Source: an uncultured bacterium
Lineage (GTDB): Bacteria > Myxococcota_A > Polyangia > Polyangiales > Houyiibacteriaceae
Assembly (NCBI GenBank): GCA_937998345.1
Contig: CALLDH010000169.1
Coordinates: 1-38,630, forward strand
Direction of reading: 5' to 3'
Length of the DNA stretch: 38,630 nt
In this document: in pieces, positions 20,707 to 38,630 of the stretch
Layout of the letters: each line of letters starts with the position of its first letter
Position numbering within the stretch: position 1 is the first letter of the stretch
The notes under the pieces: generated by a model
What the model was told of the DNA's origin: nothing
The model's database searches: none
The model's input: only the letters and a program-made list of their open reading frames with translations
Made by a program: the position numbers and the translations under genes

Positions 20707-21159
20707 TCAAAGGGTGATCAAATCGCCAAGGCGCTCGACGATCTCGTCTTGCTTGCTCGCAGCCAAATCTTTGTCGAGCGCGGCCATCACGAGCTGAGCC
20801 GTCGGGCCGTCGAGGGAAGACCGGAGCAATCCCAAGAACTTTGGCGGCGCAACGAGAACCACGCCCCTGTATCGATTCTGCACGCGAGCATCCTGGAGCT
20901 TGTCGGCCAGCGCTCTCGCGAAGTCGGAAACCGCTCTATCGTGCGGGCCTTCGCTCTGGCCCATCGACGCGCGGCCAGGGTCACCGCTGTTTTTGCGAAA
21001 AGAGCGGCCAGGACGGTCGGAAGCCATGTCCCGATCCCGTGCTCGACCCTCGGGGTGCTCGACCTCCTCGACGAGCTCCAGCCCCGTTCCGCGACCGCGG
21101 TTCTCGAAGAATCGAGCCCCCGCCTCGTGAGCGACTACAATCCATGTGCTGGTCATCAT
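20707..21159 (-). CDS. Host attachment protein (baeRF12/AtsE-like)
   Basis: TWIVVAHEAGARFF, SDRPGRSF, FARALA, LVAPPKFLGLLR, DKDL; SD gggagg. Confidence 0.88.
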   Translation of the reverse strand: MMTSTWIVVAHEAGARFFENRGRGTGLELVEEVEHPEGRARDRDMASDRPGRSFRKNSGDPGRASMGQSEGPHDRAVSDFARALADKLQDARVQNRYRGVVLVAPPKFLGLLRSSLDGPTAQLVMAALDKDLAASKQDEIVERLGDLITL

Positions 21160-27499: not shown

Positions 27500-29161
27500 A
27501 TGACCAAGGGTAACGGCGCACAAGCTCTGATTCAGACTCTCATCCACGGTGGTGTGGACACCTGCTTCACCAATCCTGGGACGTCGGAGATGCACTTCGT
27601 CGCCGCGTTAGATCGGTCTAATATGCGCGGGGTATTGTGTTTGTTCGAAGGCGTGGCTTCGGGGGCTGCCGACGGATACGCGCGCATGGCAGATAAGCCT
27701 GCAGCCACCTTGTTGCATCTTGGATGCGGTCTCGGAAATGCGCTCGCGAACCTGCACAATGCGCGCAAGGCGCGTGTACCCATGATCAACATCATCGGAG
27801 ATCATGCGACCTATCACACTCAATACGACGCGCAGTTGCAGTCAGACATTGAGACCGTCGCCAAGAACATTTCTACGTGGTTCAAGACGACGCCTGAAAC
27901 CAGTCAACTAGCTGCCGATGCGGCTGAAGCGGTAGCGGTGGCCAAGGGCCCGCCCGCACAGATTGCTACCCTGATCTTGCCCGCAGATGTGTCCTGGGGT
28001 GAGGGTGCCGAACCCGTGCAGGCGCACGAGCCTGTGCAAGCGCCGGCGGCGTCTGGCGAAACGGTGCAGGCGATTGCACGGGTCATCAAGAAGTCGGGCA
28101 AGAAGGTTGCCTTCTTGTTGGGCAATCGGGTGCTACGTGAGGCTGGGCTGCGCGCGGCGTCGCAGATTGCGCAGAAGACAGGCGCCAAGCTCTTCTGCGA
28201 GGTCTTTCCGACGCGCCTCGAGCGAGGTGAAGGGCTGCCCGCCGTCGAGCGCATTGCGTACCTTGCGGAAATGGCTTCGGTGCAGCTCGACGGCTATGAC
28301 CACTTGGTTCTGGTGGATGCCAAGGCTCCCGTGTCGTTCTTCGCCTATCCAGGCAAGAAGAGCTATCTCGTGCCAGACAAGTGCACAGCCCACACATTGG
28401 TGGAGCCGCATGAAGATGCGCTCGCTTCGCTGCAGGCACTCGTCGAAGCGGCGGGTGCGTCCAACACCGAGCCCAAGTTGCAGAGCGCGGAACGTCCAAA
28501 ATTGCCCAAAGGCAAACTCAACGCCGCCAAGGTGTGTCAGGCCATTGGTGCCCTGTTGCCGACACACGCCATCATCTCCGACGAGGCGCAAACCTCCGGG
28601 GTTAGGCTGCCGAGTTTCACAGCGGGTGCGCCTCGCCATGACGTGCTGGCTTTGACCGGCGGGGCAATCGGACAAGGTTTGCCGGTCGCCGTCGGCGCGG
28701 CAACGGCCTCGCCGGACCGTCCCGTGCTCGCGCTCGTTGGCGATGGCTCCGCCATGTACACGATTCAGGCGCTATGGACGATCGCACGCGAGGGTCTCGA
28801 CGTAACTACGGTTATCTTGAACAACCGCTCCTATGGGATTCTCAATATTGAGCTCGAGCGCGTCGGAGCAGACAAGATCGGACCCAAAGCCAAGGCGCAA
28901 TTGGACCTATCGGAACCCGCGATTGACTTTGTGGCGATGGCCAAAGGAATGGGCGTATCTGCACAACGCGTCGCGACAGCCGAGGACTTCAACGCAGCGC
29001 TGCGAAACGCACTGAAGACCCGTGGCCCGTATCTGATCGATGCGGTCGTCCCTAGCGAGTACGAAGGATTGAAGCTCAAAGCGCTACCACACATGCTCAA
29101 CGCGCTCGGCAGCGTCCCTTCACCTGTCGCGAAGGCAATCAAGAAAAAGATTGCGCCGTAG
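27500..29161 (+). CDS. ThDP-dependent enzyme, acetolactate synthase large subunit-like
   Basis: NPGTSEMH, EGVASGAADGYAR, ThDP motif GDGSAMY...NN. No small subunit adjacent. Confidence 0.9.
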   Translation: MTKGNGAQALIQTLIHGGVDTCFTNPGTSEMHFVAALDRSNMRGVLCLFEGVASGAADGYARMADKPAATLLHLGCGLGNALANLHNARKARVPMINIIGDHATYHTQYDAQLQSDIETVAKNISTWFKTTPETSQLAADAAEAVAVAKGPPAQIATLILPADVSWGEGAEPVQAHEPVQAPAASGETVQAIARVIKKSGKKVAFLLGNRVLREAGLRAASQIAQKTGAKLFCEVFPTRLERGEGLPAVERIAYLAEMASVQLDGYDHLVLVDAKAPVSFFAYPGKKSYLVPDKCTAHTLVEPHEDALASLQALVEAAGASNTEPKLQSAERPKLPKGKLNAAKVCQAIGALLPTHAIISDEAQTSGVRLPSFTAGAPRHDVLALTGGAIGQGLPVAVGAATASPDRPVLALVGDGSAMYTIQALWTIAREGLDVTTVILNNRSYGILNIELERVGADKIGPKAKAQLDLSEPAIDFVAMAKGMGVSAQRVATAEDFNAALRNALKTRGPYLIDAVVPSEYEGLKLKALPHMLNALGSVPSPVAKAIKKKIAP

Positions 29162-29248
29162 CCGGCGCACGACGCCATGCGGTTCGAACGTCCGCGTGAA
29201 GAGCCGACTGAAGACAGGGGAGGCTGTAGGCAGTATGGTTCGCAAGCC

Positions 29249-30040
29249 GTGAACGCGAGCAGGCCGCATCGATTGATCACTCTTGCCTTCTCTCACTACA
29301 ACGAGAAGGCTCGATGGGCGCTCGACCGATACGCGATTCCTTACAGCGAGGAACCGCACATGCCCTTCGTCTGTTCTTTGGCGGTCGCCGTCGCGACCCG
29401 CGGTCGCGGTGGCAAGGCCGACCGCACATCGTCCCGATACTCGACTCCAGTCCTGATCCTGAACGATGGCCGTGTCCTCTCGGACTCCACCGACATCGTT
29501 CGTTTCGCCGCGGAAGGAGACGACTCGTTGTTTCCAAGCAGCGAAGTCTCGGAGCTCGTCGACCACTACGGCGACCAACTAGGTCCGTACACTCGCTTCT
29601 TGGCGTACTGGCACCTGGGCCGTCATCCGGGAATGATCGAGCGACTGGCTGCTGACAACGTAGGCAGTCGGCAAGCAAAGGTGTTCCAACGACTTGCGCC
29701 CCTGATAGAGTCCCAACTCACGCGTGCCTTGAGTCTCACCGAGGCGGGTCGGGACCGCGCCATGGCGCGCCTACGCGAGGAACTAGATGCCGCCGGGTCG
29801 AGGCTCGGAGACCGCGACTATCTCTGCGGCGATCGATTCATAGCGGCCGACCTCACCTTCGGAGCGCTCCTCGCACCCGTGCTGTGCATCACACCCGAAG
29901 AGGGATTCGGCGCCATTCTGCCCGAACTAGCCTCCCTCGACGACGAGGCTCGGGCGCTGATCAGCGAGGTGCGCGCCCACAGAGCCGGCCAGTTCGCCCT
30001 TCGAATCTACGGCGAAGAGCGGCGCCGTTGCCAAAGCTAG
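29249..30040 (+). CDS. Glutathione S-transferase family protein
   Basis: SHYNEKARWALD, TPVL, DSTDI, YLCGDRFIAADLTF. GTG at 29249. Confidence 0.88.
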   Translation: MNASRPHRLITLAFSHYNEKARWALDRYAIPYSEEPHMPFVCSLAVAVATRGRGGKADRTSSRYSTPVLILNDGRVLSDSTDIVRFAAEGDDSLFPSSEVSELVDHYGDQLGPYTRFLAYWHLGRHPGMIERLAADNVGSRQAKVFQRLAPLIESQLTRALSLTEAGRDRAMARLREELDAAGSRLGDRDYLCGDRFIAADLTFGALLAPVLCITPEEGFGAILPELASLDDEARALISEVRAHRAGQFALRIYGEERRRCQS

Positions 30041-30200
30041 AGACGGATTTCCGCGCAGCTGATTCTCCTCGGCTACACCTCATCGTTGCAGCCCACGTTC
30101 GTCGCCATCGCGCTCCTTGCCCGAGAATCGGGGTGGAATCGGGCCATTGTGTACCCGGAGAGTGTCCCCTGCGGGTTGAGGGGGTTACTATCGATGCCCG

Positions 30201-30698
30201 GTGATCACGTCCGTCGACCACATTCACATTCATGCCGCCGACCCTTCGGCCACGATTCGGTTCTACGAGTCCTGCTTCGGCGCTGAGCACCTAGGGTCCA
30301 TTCCTTCGGGTGAAGGTGGGCAGAACCAGGGCGTGCTTCTCGGCGGGCAGCTCTTGGTCATCAGTGCCTTCCCGTCAGGAATGACTCCGATGGAGCCGCC
30401 TGAAGCGGGGGAGGGGGCGCTTCGCTCCGGGTTTGGCGTGGCGCACTTTGGTGTTCAGACCACCGACCTCGATGGCGCGCTGGCGCGCTTGCGTGAGGCC
30501 GGGGTACACGCCCACGCCGAGCCGCGGCGCACTGGCTCGATCCGCTACGCGTATGTGACCGCACCCGACGGCGTGGTCATCGAGCTTGTTGAGCTCCACC
30601 TGCCTGCCCATCTCGCGCGGCTCGTGCCCCTGCTCAACGGCGTCAACCGAGCGATCCACCTCACACGACGCGCCCTCGCGAAGCAACTCTTCAAGTAG
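30201..30698 (+). CDS. VOC/glyoxalase family protein
   Basis: DHIHI...FY, HFGVQ, YVTAPDGVVIELVE. Confidence 0.88.
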   Translation: MITSVDHIHIHAADPSATIRFYESCFGAEHLGSIPSGEGGQNQGVLLGGQLLVISAFPSGMTPMEPPEAGEGALRSGFGVAHFGVQTTDLDGALARLREAGVHAHAEPRRTGSIRYAYVTAPDGVVIELVELHLPAHLARLVPLLNGVNRAIHLTRRALAKQLFK

Positions 30699-30771
30699 CC
30701 CCATCTCCTATGTTACGTTCAGTCCCGCCGGGACGACCGATTCCCGGGCGAAACCGGACCTTGGAGTGCAA

Positions 30772-31929
30772 GTGCGAGAACCTGAATCGAAGACCACACC
30801 GACCCTCGCGTATACTCGCTCCCCGGCACACAAAGAGACGAACGAGGCCAAGGCCGAGAGCCGACGCTTTCATTCGAGCTCGAAGAAAGTCAGGTTGCCT
30901 CCCTTTCCGAATAGTTGGTTTCACCTGGCCCCTTTTAGCGAATTCAAGAAGGACGAGATTCGGTCATTCAAGTTTCTCGGGCACGACATCATCGCCTTCA
31001 AAACGGGAAACGACAGCATTACCGTGATGGATGCGTACTGCCCTCACCTCGGTGCCCATTTGGGACGGGACGCGAAGGGGCGGAACAATCGGCTAAAGAA
31101 TGGATGCGTAGAGTGCCCCTATCACCATCTCACCTTCGACTCCGAGGGAAGCTGCGTACAAGGGAAGAGCCATGCGTCTGTGCCCAAGGCGAAGGTTTTC
31201 ACTTGGGAAACCGAAATCGTTGAAGGTCTCGTCTTCGTTTATCATCACAAAGACAAGTTGCCTGCGACCTGGAAGGTCTCTGAGTTCTTTCGCCCAGAAG
31301 GAAACTGGAGCCAGCCCTATATGACCTATCAAGGCGTTCATCCCATTCACCCGCAGGATGCCGCCGAGAACTCCGTCGACACCTTACATTTTCGGACTCT
31401 GCACCAGTTCGACCAGGTCGATCAGGTCACCGAAGCCGTTGCCGACCGTCAGCATTTTTACCAAACGCTTCACATTGGAAGGATGGGGATTCTCCCAAAG
31501 TTCATGAGGAACGTCCCCATCTACTCAGTCGTCAAAGAGGCCGCGGTAGGCGTTGGGTTCCCCATGGCCCACAATCGTTTTCATCCGATTGGATTGCAGG
31601 TAAACCATCTCGTTTTTCTGACGCCGATCGATGAGACCTCGACGAACTTCTGGTTCTACTTTCAGGTGTCTTTCTCGGACGTGAAAGTGCCTCGGTTCAT
31701 GAAAAGGCAAAAGGAGCGCCTCGACCGCCATTTGAACGAGCATGTTAAGCGAGCTGTCGACAGAGCTGTCCATCGCGCCGCATGTACCGCTCTGTCCCCC
31801 GTGTTTGCTTTCATCAACAGCCAAGATCTCGATATTTGGTCGACGAAGTCCTATTGCGAGAAACCTATCGTCTTGGGAGATGACGGCAACATCCATCTGT
31901 TCCGCAAATGGTGTAAGCAATTCTACTAA
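30772..31929 (+). CDS. Rieske non-heme iron oxygenase (KshA/Neverland-like)
   Basis: Rieske CPHLGAHL...CPYH, mononuclear Fe ENSVDTLHFRTLH, C-terminal QDLDIW..K and FRKWCKQFY. Start GTG 30772 (after ggag) or 30766. Confidence 0.88.
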   Translation: MREPESKTTPTLAYTRSPAHKETNEAKAESRRFHSSSKKVRLPPFPNSWFHLAPFSEFKKDEIRSFKFLGHDIIAFKTGNDSITVMDAYCPHLGAHLGRDAKGRNNRLKNGCVECPYHHLTFDSEGSCVQGKSHASVPKAKVFTWETEIVEGLVFVYHHKDKLPATWKVSEFFRPEGNWSQPYMTYQGVHPIHPQDAAENSVDTLHFRTLHQFDQVDQVTEAVADRQHFYQTLHIGRMGILPKFMRNVPIYSVVKEAAVGVGFPMAHNRFHPIGLQVNHLVFLTPIDETSTNFWFYFQVSFSDVKVPRFMKRQKERLDRHLNEHVKRAVDRAVHRAACTALSPVFAFINSQDLDIWSTKSYCEKPIVLGDDGNIHLFRKWCKQFY

Positions 31930-35656: not shown

Positions 35657-36805
35657 GTGACTCTAATGACAGGGTTTTTGGAGATGGGGCAGGGGACCAC
35701 CTCGGTCGAGCGCGGAATTCGGGTGCGCGAGGCAAGGCCTGAGGACAATCGATTCCTGATCGACCTCAGTGAGCAGTGTCCCATGCAGGCGGACACCTCC
35801 CTGCTGATCGAGCGCTCGCCAGACTTCTTTGCGCTCTCGAATGCGAGAGGCAGCTCTTGGACTGCCGTTGTTGAAGCGGGAGGACGCCTGGTGGCGTGTG
35901 CCAGTGTTGCGCGGCGCCCTGCGTGGGTCTCCGGCAAGCGGATGGAAATGGGTGTCATCGCCGACGTGAAGGTCTCCCCGGACCATCGAGGGCGAGGAGT
36001 CGCAGGGCAGTTGCTGACGCACCTCGTGCAGGCGGAGCGTGCGCGTGCGCCGGCCGTCTTTGCGGGCCTGACCGCAGCAGGTAACCAGTCGATCGATGGC
36101 ATGTTGCGAAGCTTTGGGGAAATGCTTCCGCTCAACCGCCTCGCCACGTTCACGTCGTATGAGCTGCTGCCCTTGATTCCCCTCAGGGTCAGGAAGGACC
36201 TTCTGATCCGGCCCGCGACCGAATCGGACCGAAGTGTTATGGTGTCGCTCCTCTCGAGATTTCACCGTAGCTACTGCTTTGGGCCGGTGTTTGAGGACGG
36301 CGGTTTCGAGGCGCAACTGGCGCGTAGCCCAGGGATGGACATTTCGTCGTACTGGCTGGCTTTTCGCGGAAACGTGCTCGAGGCGGCGCTTGGGACTTGG
36401 GACCAAAGCGCGTTCAAGCGCATTCGCGTTCTGAGCATGCCGAGCAGCATGCGCCTGGCTGTGGAGTCGCTCCGGAAGGTGTCGGCGTTCGCACCGCTTC
36501 CCAAGCTGCCGACGGTCGGGGACGTCTTGCGTCTTCGCTACCTCCGCCACGCCGCCCATCTGCCAGGAAAGCTCGACTCGCTCAGCGCCCTAGTTCGGCA
36601 CTGCGTCAATGATGCGCGCAAGCGGGAGGATCATTTCGTTCTCTTCACCTGCGCGGATACGGATCCACTTGCCGGAGCCGTGCGAGGAATTCCCCGATTC
36701 ACCTATCGATATGGCCTCACCGCAGGCTGCAATCGTCCCGAGGCCCAGCCGCTACTCGAAGCGATTGGCGATCAAACTTTCTACGACGACGCGAGTCTTT
36801 CATGA
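35657..36805 (+). CDS. GNAT-family acyltransferase (tandem-domain length)
   Basis: Acyl-CoA motif DVKVSPDHRGRGVAGQL; second GNAT-like start IRPATESD; ERSPDFF. Confidence 0.82.
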   Translation: MTLMTGFLEMGQGTTSVERGIRVREARPEDNRFLIDLSEQCPMQADTSLLIERSPDFFALSNARGSSWTAVVEAGGRLVACASVARRPAWVSGKRMEMGVIADVKVSPDHRGRGVAGQLLTHLVQAERARAPAVFAGLTAAGNQSIDGMLRSFGEMLPLNRLATFTSYELLPLIPLRVRKDLLIRPATESDRSVMVSLLSRFHRSYCFGPVFEDGGFEAQLARSPGMDISSYWLAFRGNVLEAALGTWDQSAFKRIRVLSMPSSMRLAVESLRKVSAFAPLPKLPTVGDVLRLRYLRHAAHLPGKLDSLSALVRHCVNDARKREDHFVLFTCADTDPLAGAVRGIPRFTYRYGLTAGCNRPEAQPLLEAIGDQTFYDDASLS

Positions 36806-37959
36806 ACGATACGAAGACCCCAGGGCACGACGGTGTCCAGCTTGATGAGCTCATCTTCACGTTGAGCTGGGAAGATCCAGCACTCGACGTGGAGGCGCTA
36901 CGCGTGAGCTCAAACACGCGCATTGCGACCGTTGCCTCGGGAGGGTGCAACGCGCTCACCTTCCTCTTGCATGACCCCGCATTCGTCTACGCGTTCGACT
37001 ACAATCTCACGCAGGTTTGGACGCTACAGCTCAAAGCGGCCGCGTTCCGAACCCTCGATCACGCAGCGGTCCTCGAGTTGTTTGGAGTGCGTGAGTCGAA
37101 TCGGCGTCGCACGCTCGTCGAAACGGCGGTCCAAGAGCTCTCCCCTGAAGCGCGTCAATACTGGCTCGGTCGCGAGGACCTAGTGCAACAGGGTTTGCTT
37201 GGCCTCGGGCGCTACGAGCGGTTTGTCCGCGCCTTTCGGACCCTGCTTCGCCTCATACAGGGGCGACGTCGAATCGAAGCTTTGTTCGACGAGCGCGATC
37301 AGCAAGCCCGCGTGGAGTTCTTCGAGAACAAATGGAACAGCCGGGCTTGGCGCTTGCTTTTCAAAGCCTTCTTCAACAAGACCGTCCTGTCCCGACGGGG
37401 GCTGAGCCCGGAGTACTTCACATTCGATGACGGCTCGACTTCCTTTGCCGACAGCTTTGCACGACGTACTCGACACGCGTTGACGGAGCTTTCCGTACGC
37501 GACAACCATTTTCTCGCGCAGTACACCCGCGGTGCGTATCTCGACGAGGAACATCTTCCCGACTATCTGCGCGAGGAGAATTTCGATCTTTTGCGTTCGC
37601 GCCTCGATCGACTCGTACTAGAGCAGAACGACGTTCGAAGCCTCGTGGAGCGCTTTGGGCCGTCGGCCTTCGACGGCATCTGCCTCTCCAACGTGTTCGA
37701 GTTAATGTCCGAAGCCGAAACGCAAGACGTATTGCAGAAGCTCGCTCCCTGCCTGGTTCCCGGTGGTCGTATGACCTTGCGCAATCTGATGATCCCGCGC
37801 GCTGTGAAAGGCGAGCTGGCAAGGCAGCTCGTTCGCGATGAACCCCTGTCCCGAGCCTTGCTCTTCAAGGATCGTTCCTTCGTTTACCGTTCGTTTCAGG
37901 TCTATACGTACCGGCCGGACGAGGCCGACAGAGAGTCGAGAAAGGTAGCCAATGCTTAG
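36802..37959 (+). CDS. DUF3419/BtaA-like SAM-dependent transferase
   Basis: SWEDPALDVEAL, VASGGCNAL, DYNLTQ, GRYER, LPDYL, LSNVFE, DRSFVY. ATGA overlap with the GNAT gene. Confidence 0.85.
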   Translation: MNDTKTPGHDGVQLDELIFTLSWEDPALDVEALRVSSNTRIATVASGGCNALTFLLHDPAFVYAFDYNLTQVWTLQLKAAAFRTLDHAAVLELFGVRESNRRRTLVETAVQELSPEARQYWLGREDLVQQGLLGLGRYERFVRAFRTLLRLIQGRRRIEALFDERDQQARVEFFENKWNSRAWRLLFKAFFNKTVLSRRGLSPEYFTFDDGSTSFADSFARRTRHALTELSVRDNHFLAQYTRGAYLDEEHLPDYLREENFDLLRSRLDRLVLEQNDVRSLVERFGPSAFDGICLSNVFELMSEAETQDVLQKLAPCLVPGGRMTLRNLMIPRAVKGELARQLVRDEPLSRALLFKDRSFVYRSFQVYTYRPDEADRESRKVANA

Positions 37960-38630
37960 TCCAGAACATGAACGCTATCGTCCGGTTCATCAGATCATCC
38001 TGTCCCAGGCGGTGGCAGGAGAGGCTATTGCGATTCGGCACTTGGCGCGCATGATTTGCTTGAGCAAAGACCTGGACGAGCGGCTAGAGCTGGTGCAGGA
38101 CGCAGGCAGGGAGCGTGCTCACCTGTTGAGCCTACGCTCCGTCGCCGCAGATATAGGAGCTCCGCTCGTTGCCGCTCCCGATCCGTACTGGGACGAGGTC
38201 GGTCGAGCATTCGATTCATTCGCTGATGCGGGGGATCTCGACGGCTGTTACATCGTCCAAGACGTTGTTCTCGAGTGCTACGCCATTACGCTGTACCGCG
38301 CCCTCGAAACCTGTACGGAGCCCTTCTTGGCGGAGCTGGTTCGTCGCATCGCCGACGAAGAGGAACGGCACCTGGCTCACGGCATCGAACGGGTGCGACG
38401 AGACCTCGAACGCGACCCATCGAAAGTCCATGCGCGGATTGAGGAGGCCAACGAGTCGGTTGCGCGCGTACTTGCCGGTTGGGTTCGCGAGGAGGACTGC
38501 GAACCGATCTGCGGCGTCTGTGGTAGCGTGGGAGGGACCTGTGCCAAGGACGACCTGCGTTTGCTCGGCATGGATCTTCCGAGTTTGCAGCCGGCGTTTG
38601 CACAATTGTATGGAGACAGCCTTCGTGCGG
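37952..38630 (+). CDS. Ferritin-like di-iron protein homologous to cyanobacterial aldehyde-deformylating oxygenase; 3'-truncated by window edge
   Basis: Hand translation, absent from the ORF track: MLSPEHERYR...GEAIA...ERAH...CYIVQDVVLECYAITLY...EPF...DEEERHLAHG...EEAN...CEPICGVCGSVGGTC...DDLRLLGMD...LYGDSLRA. No stop to window end; overlaps the upstream stop by 8 nt. Confidence 0.85.
   Translation, partial: MLSPEHERYRPVHQIILSQAVAGEAIAIRHLARMICLSKDLDERLELVQDAGRERAHLLSLRSVAADIGAPLVAAPDPYWDEVGRAFDSFADAGDLDGCYIVQDVVLECYAITLYRALETCTEPFLAELVRRIADEEERHLAHGIERVRRDLERDPSKVHARIEEANESVARVLAGWVREEDCEPICGVCGSVGGTCAKDDLRLLGMDLPSLQPAFAQLYGDSLRA

Follow-up and report, generated by a model that had tools for sequence, protein, structure and literature searches.

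A conserved cysteine loop in a non-cyanobacterial ADO-like protein as a probable metal site at the predicted substrate portal

At the very end of a 38,630-nucleotide contig from an uncultured bacterium of the Myxococcota_A (GenBank contig CALLDH010000169.1; this entire contig, C169, is referred to below as the window) lies the gene for a ferritin-fold di-iron oxygenase related to the aldehyde-deformylating oxygenase (ADO) of cyanobacteria. Together with a reductase that resembles acyl-ACP reductase (AAR), its product represents a distinct ADO-like/AAR-like pair, the hallmark of which is a cysteine loop that is as conserved as the catalytic ligands and that would sit, judging by alignment, at the substrate portal. 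An earlier note on this DNA had suggested that the four cysteines of the loop form a built-in metal or Fe-S site, possibly as an internal electron relay. The analysis presented here points to a metal or cluster of some kind as the probable occupant of the loop, with a structural, Zn-type site as its favored, though by no means assured, form.

The window belongs to a metagenome-assembled genome (MAG) of 3.47 Mb in 346 contigs (G000), which is 79% complete. The ADO-like open reading frame (ORF), the last gene of the window, occupies 37952..38629 of the forward strand and runs for 226 codons without a stop before the contig ends, so that 17 codons of the gene fall beyond it. The full-length form, P0001, is 243 aa long, shows a single difference (L141M), and is also present on two further contigs (L002 and L021). 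Against PF11266 (Ald_deCOase), the 226-aa fragment scored 33.6 bits (E 4.6e-8), above the Pfam gathering threshold of 28, and when a profile of 22 homologues was compared with the PDB, the significant matches were cyanobacterial ADO chains only (best E 1.3e-26). The AlphaFold2 (AF2) model, with a predicted local distance difference test (pLDDT) score of 90.5 from 22 sequences and 93.7 from 56, superposed on the ADO of S. elongatus (SeADO; 4rc7_A) with a VIA-align Z of 27.7 and a root-mean-square deviation of 1.8 Å over 218 of 220 residues; the next-nearest folds by the same method (VlmB, R2lox, and PaaA/C) gave Z values of ~18-20, and Foldseek TM values to ADO structures were 0.80-0.89. The di-iron ligands E24, E54, H57, E108, E137, and H140, in the order E, ExxH, E, ExxH, were invariant in all 22 homologues. 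The Pfam match, the superposition, and the six ligands all uphold the ADO-like identity that had been proposed from the sequence. Because fold and ligands match, yet the score against TIGR04059, the equivalog model for cyanobacterial ADO, is far under its cut-off (37.3 versus 222.65 bits), the protein is a member of the ADO family that is distinct from the cyanobacterial enzyme. Membership among the rubrerythrins was considered and rejected, as PF02915 gave 17.9 bits against a threshold of 22.8, and the protein has no rubredoxin domain.

Translation places the four cysteines exactly at 38498-38542 with the CX3CX2CX6C spacing described in the earlier note, and its claim that they lie in an insertion between two helices that are adjacent in cyanobacterial ADO was borne out in two ways. 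In a MAFFT alignment, cyanobacterial-type ADOs (P0102, P0106, and others) have a clean 17-residue gap opposite E181-C197, and HMMER matches the solved ADOs in two blocks, in which profile positions 8-161 and 199-241 pair with ADO residues 17-168 and 185-227, leaving ~20 extra residues between the blocks of the ADO-like profile. In the AF2 model, helices 156-177 and 199-204 flank the loop, and a short helix (188-192) begins just past C187, which puts C187-x-x-C190-G at a helix N-terminus in the shape of a knuckle. As the alignment was deepened from 22 to 56 sequences, the pLDDT of the loop rose from 55-61 to 79-82, and the loop is therefore predicted to be ordered.

The strongest argument for a functional loop comes from its conservation. 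Across 56 full-length relatives that are 22-88% identical to P0001, only eight alignment columns were invariant: E24, Q103, E108, Y115, H140, C187, C190, and C197. Apart from the cysteines, these columns hold di-iron ligands or residues of the core. The three cysteines of this list were thus unchanged in 56/56 relatives, down to 22% identity, as they had been in 22/22 homologues of the smaller set, and K199, just beyond the loop, was kept in 55/56. The expectation that all four cysteines would be conserved held for these three and failed for C183, which is clade-specific and was retained in 20/22 and 47/56 sequences, respectively. In seven of the nine rows that lack C183, however, a histidine (His-186) directly precedes C187, and such compensation at the fourth position is, as far as aligned sequences can tell, the pattern of a four-ligand site. 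The core that is kept family-wide is C-x2-C-x3-6-C, with the first cysteine limited to some clades and replaced elsewhere by His-186 or by a Cys at position -5. The CX3CX2C spacing, which had been put forward in favor of an Fe-S cluster, varies across the family and loses its force as an argument. A radical SAM (S-adenosylmethionine) interpretation of the same spacing was likewise rejected, as there was no match to PF04055 at E <= 0.1, the fold is ferritin-like, and the x3 interval is not conserved.

The wider family is small, just 202 proteins having been found at E <= 0.001 in an exhaustive profile search of 1.84 billion representatives. Within a set of 171 proteins, 74 cover the loop, and 38 of these have four cysteines, spaced Cx3Cx2Cx6C (19/74), Cx3Cx2Cx3C (12/74, plus one with an additional Cys), or Cx4Cx2Cx3C (6/74). 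Three-cysteine loops are of two kinds, namely Cx2Cx3C (19/74), where a histidine stands immediately before the first cysteine in 17 of the 19, and forms without CxxC (Cx3Cx4-6C; 11/74); other patterns account for 2/74, and 4/74 have no cysteine in the loop. For phylogeny, 72 proteins with >=150 aligned positions were considered, of which 16 without the full EEHEEH string (truncated, frameshifted, or divergent) were removed. The resulting maximum-likelihood tree of 56 rows contains four Cys-loop clades outside cyanobacterial ADO, with support of 94/97, 99/99, 98/100, and 100/100, and together with the conserved cysteines these clades confirm the distinct subfamily that had been anticipated. The deep nodes between the Cys-loop clades and cyanobacterial ADO are weakly supported (46/50), and a single origin of the insertion is therefore not claimed.

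Variation at the edges of the family includes genuine fusions as well as artifacts of assembly. In the true fusions, the ADO-like part is combined with a class I SAM methyltransferase (P0041, P0053, and P0057, of 561-605 aa), and P0042 and P0049 (280-285 aa) belong to the same clade. In the loop of this methyltransferase-fused clade, C183, C187, and C197 are kept, and Leu replaces C190; the C-terminal tails of P0041, P0042, and P0049 are rich in Cys (...C-x5-CC or ...SCC) and might make up for the missing ligand. Frameshifted assemblies are represented by P0121, P0030, P0047, and P0052, in which an ADO-like N-terminal part is followed by out-of-frame text, and they have consequently inflated the counts of apparent 'no-Cys' and 'fused' variants. 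The out-of-frame stretch of P0121 resumes in an AAR-like NAD-binding region; this 538-aa protein, with its ADO-like and AAR-like parts, was not accepted as a natural fusion as it appears frameshifted, and offers only a hint that, in the three-Cys clade, AAR comes next. Also set aside were the 478-aa 'Redoxin-ADO' ORFs of L036, L039, and L041, which represent an upstream extension of the ADO frame and no fusion.

Where the loop falls relative to the catalytic apparatus can be judged by comparison with cyanobacterial ADO. Hidden Markov model (HMM) alignment to ADO sequences of the PDB places SeADO 168-186 opposite P0001 162-200, and SeADO Y206-G207 at Y220-G221. As described in the passages available from PMC7089970, the AAR interface of ADO is made up of helices 7 and 8, and E196, E200, and D201 of helix 7 are the residues by which AAR is docked with its N-terminal domain; the entrance to the substrate tunnel lies between these two helices and is covered by SeADO W178. 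Parts of a molecular dynamics study likewise put the substrate entrance at PmADO R191 (equivalent to SeADO W178) and the main product exit at PmADO L194, D195, and K208 plus the H6-H7 loop (PMC11876802). Since W178 and the product-exit H6-H7 loop both map to the stretch that is expanded in the ADO-like protein, the insertion would rebuild the tunnel mouth, directly before the AAR-docking helices. The acidic helix-7 patch itself is not kept, the positions of SeADO E196, E200, and D201 being aligned with P210, P214, and A215 of P0001. As for the electron relay first envisaged, this siting does not support it: the loop aligns with the mouth of the substrate tunnel, which does not appear to be an obvious electron path.

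A partner for the docking face is encoded next door. The window ends within the ADO-like gene, and a search for its continuation in its own genome returned, as the sole match, a 153-base overlap with the window itself; for the genes further on, L002 and L021 were therefore consulted, both of which show 100% identity across the ADO-like protein. In both, the ADO-like gene is followed by an AAR-like one (L002 1215-2261; L021 3115-4158), and tblastn found such a gene adjoining the ADO-like gene in 31/31 related loci, for which reason the two are regarded, on genomic context and homology, as a non-cyanobacterial ADO/AAR pair. The AAR-like protein matched TIGR04058 (E 1.8e-38) with 132.7 bits, under the equivalog cut-off of 449.7, and PDB 6JZQ with E 3.1e-30, and the cysteine that aligns with catalytic C294 of SeAAR was invariant in 18/18 sequences. 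When the ADO-like and AAR-like proteins were co-modeled with ESMFold2, the complex scored 0.83 against 0.00 for the best of three controls, at a mark that is reached by 58/80 solved complexes and 2/110 mismatched pairs; the runs shared >=95% of contacts, and the pLDDT of the partner was >=86. Confident contacts on the ADO-like side comprise residues 210-243 (helices 7 and 8), beginning 13 residues past the loop, and those on the AAR-like side comprise N-terminal residues 21-51, 65, 95-96, and 266-267. The prediction supports binding of the two proteins to each other, although the pass may be due to likeness alone, because the face used is that of the solved cyanobacterial complex 6JZU.

From these observations, a built-in metal site at the portal can be envisaged. 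C187, C190, and C197, together with C183 (or, in other clades, His-186 or the Cys at -5), would ligate one metal and thereby fold the enlarged loop between helices 6 and 7 into a rigid knuckle. The knuckle would form the mouth of the substrate tunnel and the product exit, directly preceding helices 7 and 8, where the AAR-like acyl-thioester reductase would dock and hand over the aldehyde; a metal of the Zn type would shape and hold this portal without carrying electrons. That four ligands gather around a metal is suggested by the three invariant cysteines, the switching between Cys and His at the fourth position, and the predicted ordered knuckle with CxxCG at the start of a helix, and on this basis some metal or cluster is probably bound. 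A structural, non-redox Zn-type site is favored among the candidates, at a confidence below even, because the loop aligns with the tunnel mouth, because the enzyme works with oxygen, and because short Cys4 knuckles of this kind generally hold Zn more often. The spacing is compatible with both a structural Zn and a [4Fe-4S] cluster: the structural zinc lobe of alcohol dehydrogenase (ADH) has a similar C-x2-C-x2-C-x7-C arrangement, and endonuclease III binds [4Fe-4S] via C-x6-C-x2-C-x5-C.

The simplest objection to any such site is that the loop binds no cofactor and is a chance Cys-rich surface loop or a mere linker. Four cysteines within 15 residues would arise in ~3% of random placements of the protein's 8 Cys over 243 aa, and the pattern in one sequence is therefore weak evidence; the invariance of C187, C190, and C197, on par with the di-iron ligands, establishes the feature as real, and, to judge from the alignment, it all but refutes the cofactor-free account, which is very improbable. 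Against a purely structural Zn site, several points can be raised. The loop alone, when compared with PDB sequences, matched only a zinc-finger knuckle, at an insignificant E of 6.1. Two of the 56 rows (P0033 and P0039) have neither C183 nor His-186 and are left with three candidate ligands, which fits a three-Cys Fe-S site better, and the ESMFold2 model lists none of residues 181-197 in its confident contacts with the AAR-like protein, an omission that denotes uncertainty rather than a lack of contact. In 15/31 loci, a 250-aa AhpC/TSA-Redoxin gene (PF00578, E 1.6e-16) lies directly upstream and overlaps the ADO-like start, a hint of thiol or redox chemistry. No ferredoxin, flavodoxin, or ferredoxin reductase was found among the scanned neighbors (14, 14, 13, 13, 32, and 23 proteins), although the lack of a linked ferredoxin or reductase gene, by itself, decides neither way among Fe-S, Zn, and disulfide. 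Lastly, each turnover of ADO consumes four electrons, which an external donor has to supply, according to the available part of a review (PMC9743570), and this need would be met by a redox loop.

It is possible, then, that the loop serves as a built-in electron relay, though this must be rated as doubtful. A [4Fe-4S], [2Fe-2S], or rubredoxin-like Fe(Cys)4 center would take electrons from a general cellular donor and pass them to the di-iron site, partly replacing external ferredoxin. Such a center would suit three cysteines as conserved as the catalytic ligands, a fourth ligand that may be Cys, His, or absent, a variability shared by many Fe-S sites, the existence of a few three-ligand variants, and the lack of a linked electron-transfer gene in the neighborhoods scanned; rubrerythrin, moreover, couples Fe(Cys)4 to a di-iron bundle. 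The loop could also stay free for another partner, since it is unnamed among the AAR-like contacts on helices 7 and 8. The same review further states, in the passages available, that the substrate-entrance region is involved in ferredoxin binding (PMC9743570), but in the portion of the source to which this could be traced, the claim rests on a single GRAMM-X docking model (PMC7325246), and it is therefore given little weight. The relay is also disfavored by the apparent position of the loop at the tunnel mouth, far along the substrate channel, by the variable spacing, and by the fused forms scanned by Pfam, which include no ferredoxin or rubredoxin fusion and only methyltransferase fusions. 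In general, a [4Fe-4S] cluster that lies exposed would be labile on an enzyme that activates O2. A redox dithiol or disulfide is an unlikely alternative still worth weighing, in which C187-x-x-C190, with C197 or C183 as resolving or exchange partner, would act as a portal switch or undergo exchange with proteins of the thioredoxin fold, which would clear peroxide or supply reducing equivalents. The predicted placement of CxxC at a helix N-terminus, as in thioredoxin-type motifs, would agree with this, as would the upstream Redoxin gene and the second Redoxin/Thioredoxin-like gene nearby in L036 and L041. However, the clade of the window has DUF3419 upstream instead, and tblastn of the Redoxin protein against the window gave no match; a Redoxin partner could just scavenge peroxide from uncoupled turnover, three invariant cysteines with a compensating Cys or His suit a metal site better than a disulfide, and we know of no precedent for a thiol directly reducing a di-iron center. 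A structural metal knuckle at the portal is thus retained as the favored account, and the features on which it rests are collected in Table 1 with those of the neighboring genes.

Table 1. Positions of the ADO-like gene, its ligand and cysteine codons, and the genes upstream of it in the window
Feature	Position	Strand	Remarks
ADO-like ferritin-fold di-iron oxygenase gene	37952..38630	+	contig end cuts the gene after codon 226/243
Six di-iron ligand codons	38021..38371	+	E24 (38021), E54 (38111), H57 (38120), E108 (38273), E137 (38360), H140 (38369)
17-residue insertion E181-C197 relative to cyanobacterial-type ADO	38492..38542	+	between helices 6 and 7
C183, C187, C190, C197 (CX3CX2CX6C)	38498..38542	+	codons 38498-38500, 38510-38512, 38519-38521, 38540-38542
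K199 codon	38546-38548	+	directly after the Cys stretch
DUF3419 (BtaA-like, SAM-dependent) gene	36802..37959	+	PF11899 E 6.8e-67
382-aa GNAT-domain protein gene	35657..36805	+	first of the conserved cluster; PF13527 E 3.2e-12

Two types of operon surround the ADO-like gene. In the first, found in 14/31 loci including the clade of the window, a DUF3419 gene lies upstream, usually preceded by the gene for a GNAT protein of ~380 aa. In the window, the DUF3419 stop overlaps the ADO-like start by 8 nt (ATGCTTAG), an arrangement of translational coupling, and conservation of the upstream GNAT gene extends to L020-L023, L025, and L043 and, in weaker form, to L026, L028, and L030-L032. Where the DNA extends far enough downstream, genes for an AfsA hotdog protein, an SDR, and a GT4 glycosyltransferase follow (L021 4098-6736). 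DUF3419 is the BtaA-type aminocarboxypropyl-transferase family of betaine-lipid synthesis. With DUF3419 coupled to the ADO-like gene and AfsA, SDR, and GT4 downstream, the gene content suggests a lipid or signaling-molecule pathway. The second type comprises the Redoxin loci, which correspond to a sister clade with the Cx3Cx2Cx3C loop; its Redoxin gene lies at L028 7265-8017, L036 7246-8004, L037 7252-8004, and in 12 more loci, and the encoded protein carries a single invariant Cys within a monothiol, thioredoxin-like motif (G-x-W-C-x-Y-S-R). Genes for phosphatidylserine decarboxylase and a second thioredoxin-like protein are often near in these loci. Neither DUF3419 nor Redoxin is encoded upstream in L040 and L046.

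The cluster is rare among the sampled genomes of its phylum. A search of the phylum found matches at E <= 0.001 in 14/401 genomes, G000 included, with the only strong match among the 400 other genomes in G192 (E 5.2e-94), and the cluster was found in 0/18 same-genus genomes searched. Because it is absent from these 18 genomes and strong in one of the 400 others, the cluster (35657-38630) is either an accessory, possibly transferred island or part of a mis-binned contig. Weaker ferritin-like matches (L006-L019) were not accepted as family members, as no AAR-like neighbor occurs within the DNA examined. Hosts are Myxococcota/'Deltaproteobacteria' MAGs as well as soil or sediment metagenomes.

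Other genes lie in the vicinity of the cluster or elsewhere in the window. Two reverse-strand genes of L021 (6720-9945) run convergently toward the cluster, one for a B12-binding radical SAM protein (518 aa) and the other for a member of the MmgE/PrpD family (558 aa). In G192, too, an MmgE/PrpD gene is near the cluster, along with one for a fatty acid hydroxylase (L020 16798-19507). The window itself has genes for a thiamine pyrophosphate (TPP)-dependent enzyme, a GST-like protein, a glyoxalase-fold protein, and a Rieske/KshA-like oxygenase at 27500-31929, none of which are kept with the ADO cluster in the 31 loci, and its Rieske oxygenase, cysteine synthase, and CrtI-like oxidase have no counterpart in these related loci. 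A 150-aa protein encoded at 20710-21159 of the reverse strand matches Host_attach / bacterial eRF1-like family 12 (baeRF12) with E 1.6e-40.

ADO, which turns a Cn aldehyde into a Cn-1 alkane plus formate, is the bottleneck when alkanes are produced biologically; it is slow and needs an external ferredoxin system. A structural Zn site in the loop would represent a new portal architecture, and a redox center would make the protein a self-contained ADO scaffold. It may tentatively be imagined that the Cys3(+Cys/His) loop holds an Fe-S or rubredoxin-like Fe center that feeds the di-iron site, creating a self-wired, alkane-type oxygenase within a widespread non-cyanobacterial ADO/AAR system. If true, this would provide the first case of a redox relay housed within a loop of a catalytic ferritin-like oxygenase, and nature's own solution to the dependence of ADO on external ferredoxin. 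The pair further marks a lipid or hydrocarbon pathway that is as yet unexplored, in which one type of operon includes DUF3419, GNAT, AfsA, SDR, and glycosyltransferase genes and the other includes thioredoxin-fold partners. Among the matches listed in a full-text literature search, which covered neither subscription journals nor supplements, no article described an ADO with a Cys loop or an ADO/AAR pair from outside the cyanobacteria. One review, in the passages available, describes ADO as confined to cyanobacteria (PMC9118987), and the accessible text on BioE shows that ADO-like enzymes with other chemistry occur outside this phylum (PMC12704756).

The closest known relative of the ADO-like protein in structural terms is cyanobacterial ADO itself (PF11266/TIGR04059; 4RC5, 2OC5, and 6JZU), with which it shares the eight-helix ferritin-like fold, the six di-iron ligands, an adjacent AAR-type gene, and a predicted docking through helices 7 and 8 that parallels 6JZU. 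Sequence identity is only 19-23%, however; the cyanobacterial enzyme has a short gate loop where the ADO-like protein has its 17-residue Cys-rich insertion, and keeps the acidic residues that are replaced by P210/P214/A215 here. The hosts of the ADO-like protein are non-cyanobacterial, and its operon partners (DUF3419, GNAT, AfsA, SDR, or Redoxin genes) are unlike those of cyanobacterial ADO. BioE of the Weeksellaceae is likewise a non-cyanobacterial relative, ~20% identical to ADO and acting on long acyl chains, as far as the available passages describe it (PMC12704756). It differs in cleaving fatty acyl chains to pimelate and in being linked to bio genes; the word 'cysteine' is absent from the text of the article, and no AAR partner is described in those passages (PMC12704756). 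As for the AAR-like neighbor, it matches the N-terminal reductase region of PigE (E 1e-22) as well as AAR and keeps the catalytic Cys, but falls under the equivalog cut-offs and has no aminotransferase fusion. For the loop itself, the nearest precedent for a relay is rubrerythrin, a ferritin-like di-iron protein whose chain bears another, Cys-ligated metal site, although that site occupies a separate C-terminal domain with two CxxC knuckles, whereas the ADO-like protein has one CxxC in a 17-residue loop. The zinc lobe of ADH and the [4Fe-4S] loop of endonuclease III/MutY also have four Cys within 15-17 residues, CxxC included, and hold Zn or a cubane, respectively; neither is related in sequence or fold to the loop of the ADO-like protein, which resembles both in its compact set of cysteines.

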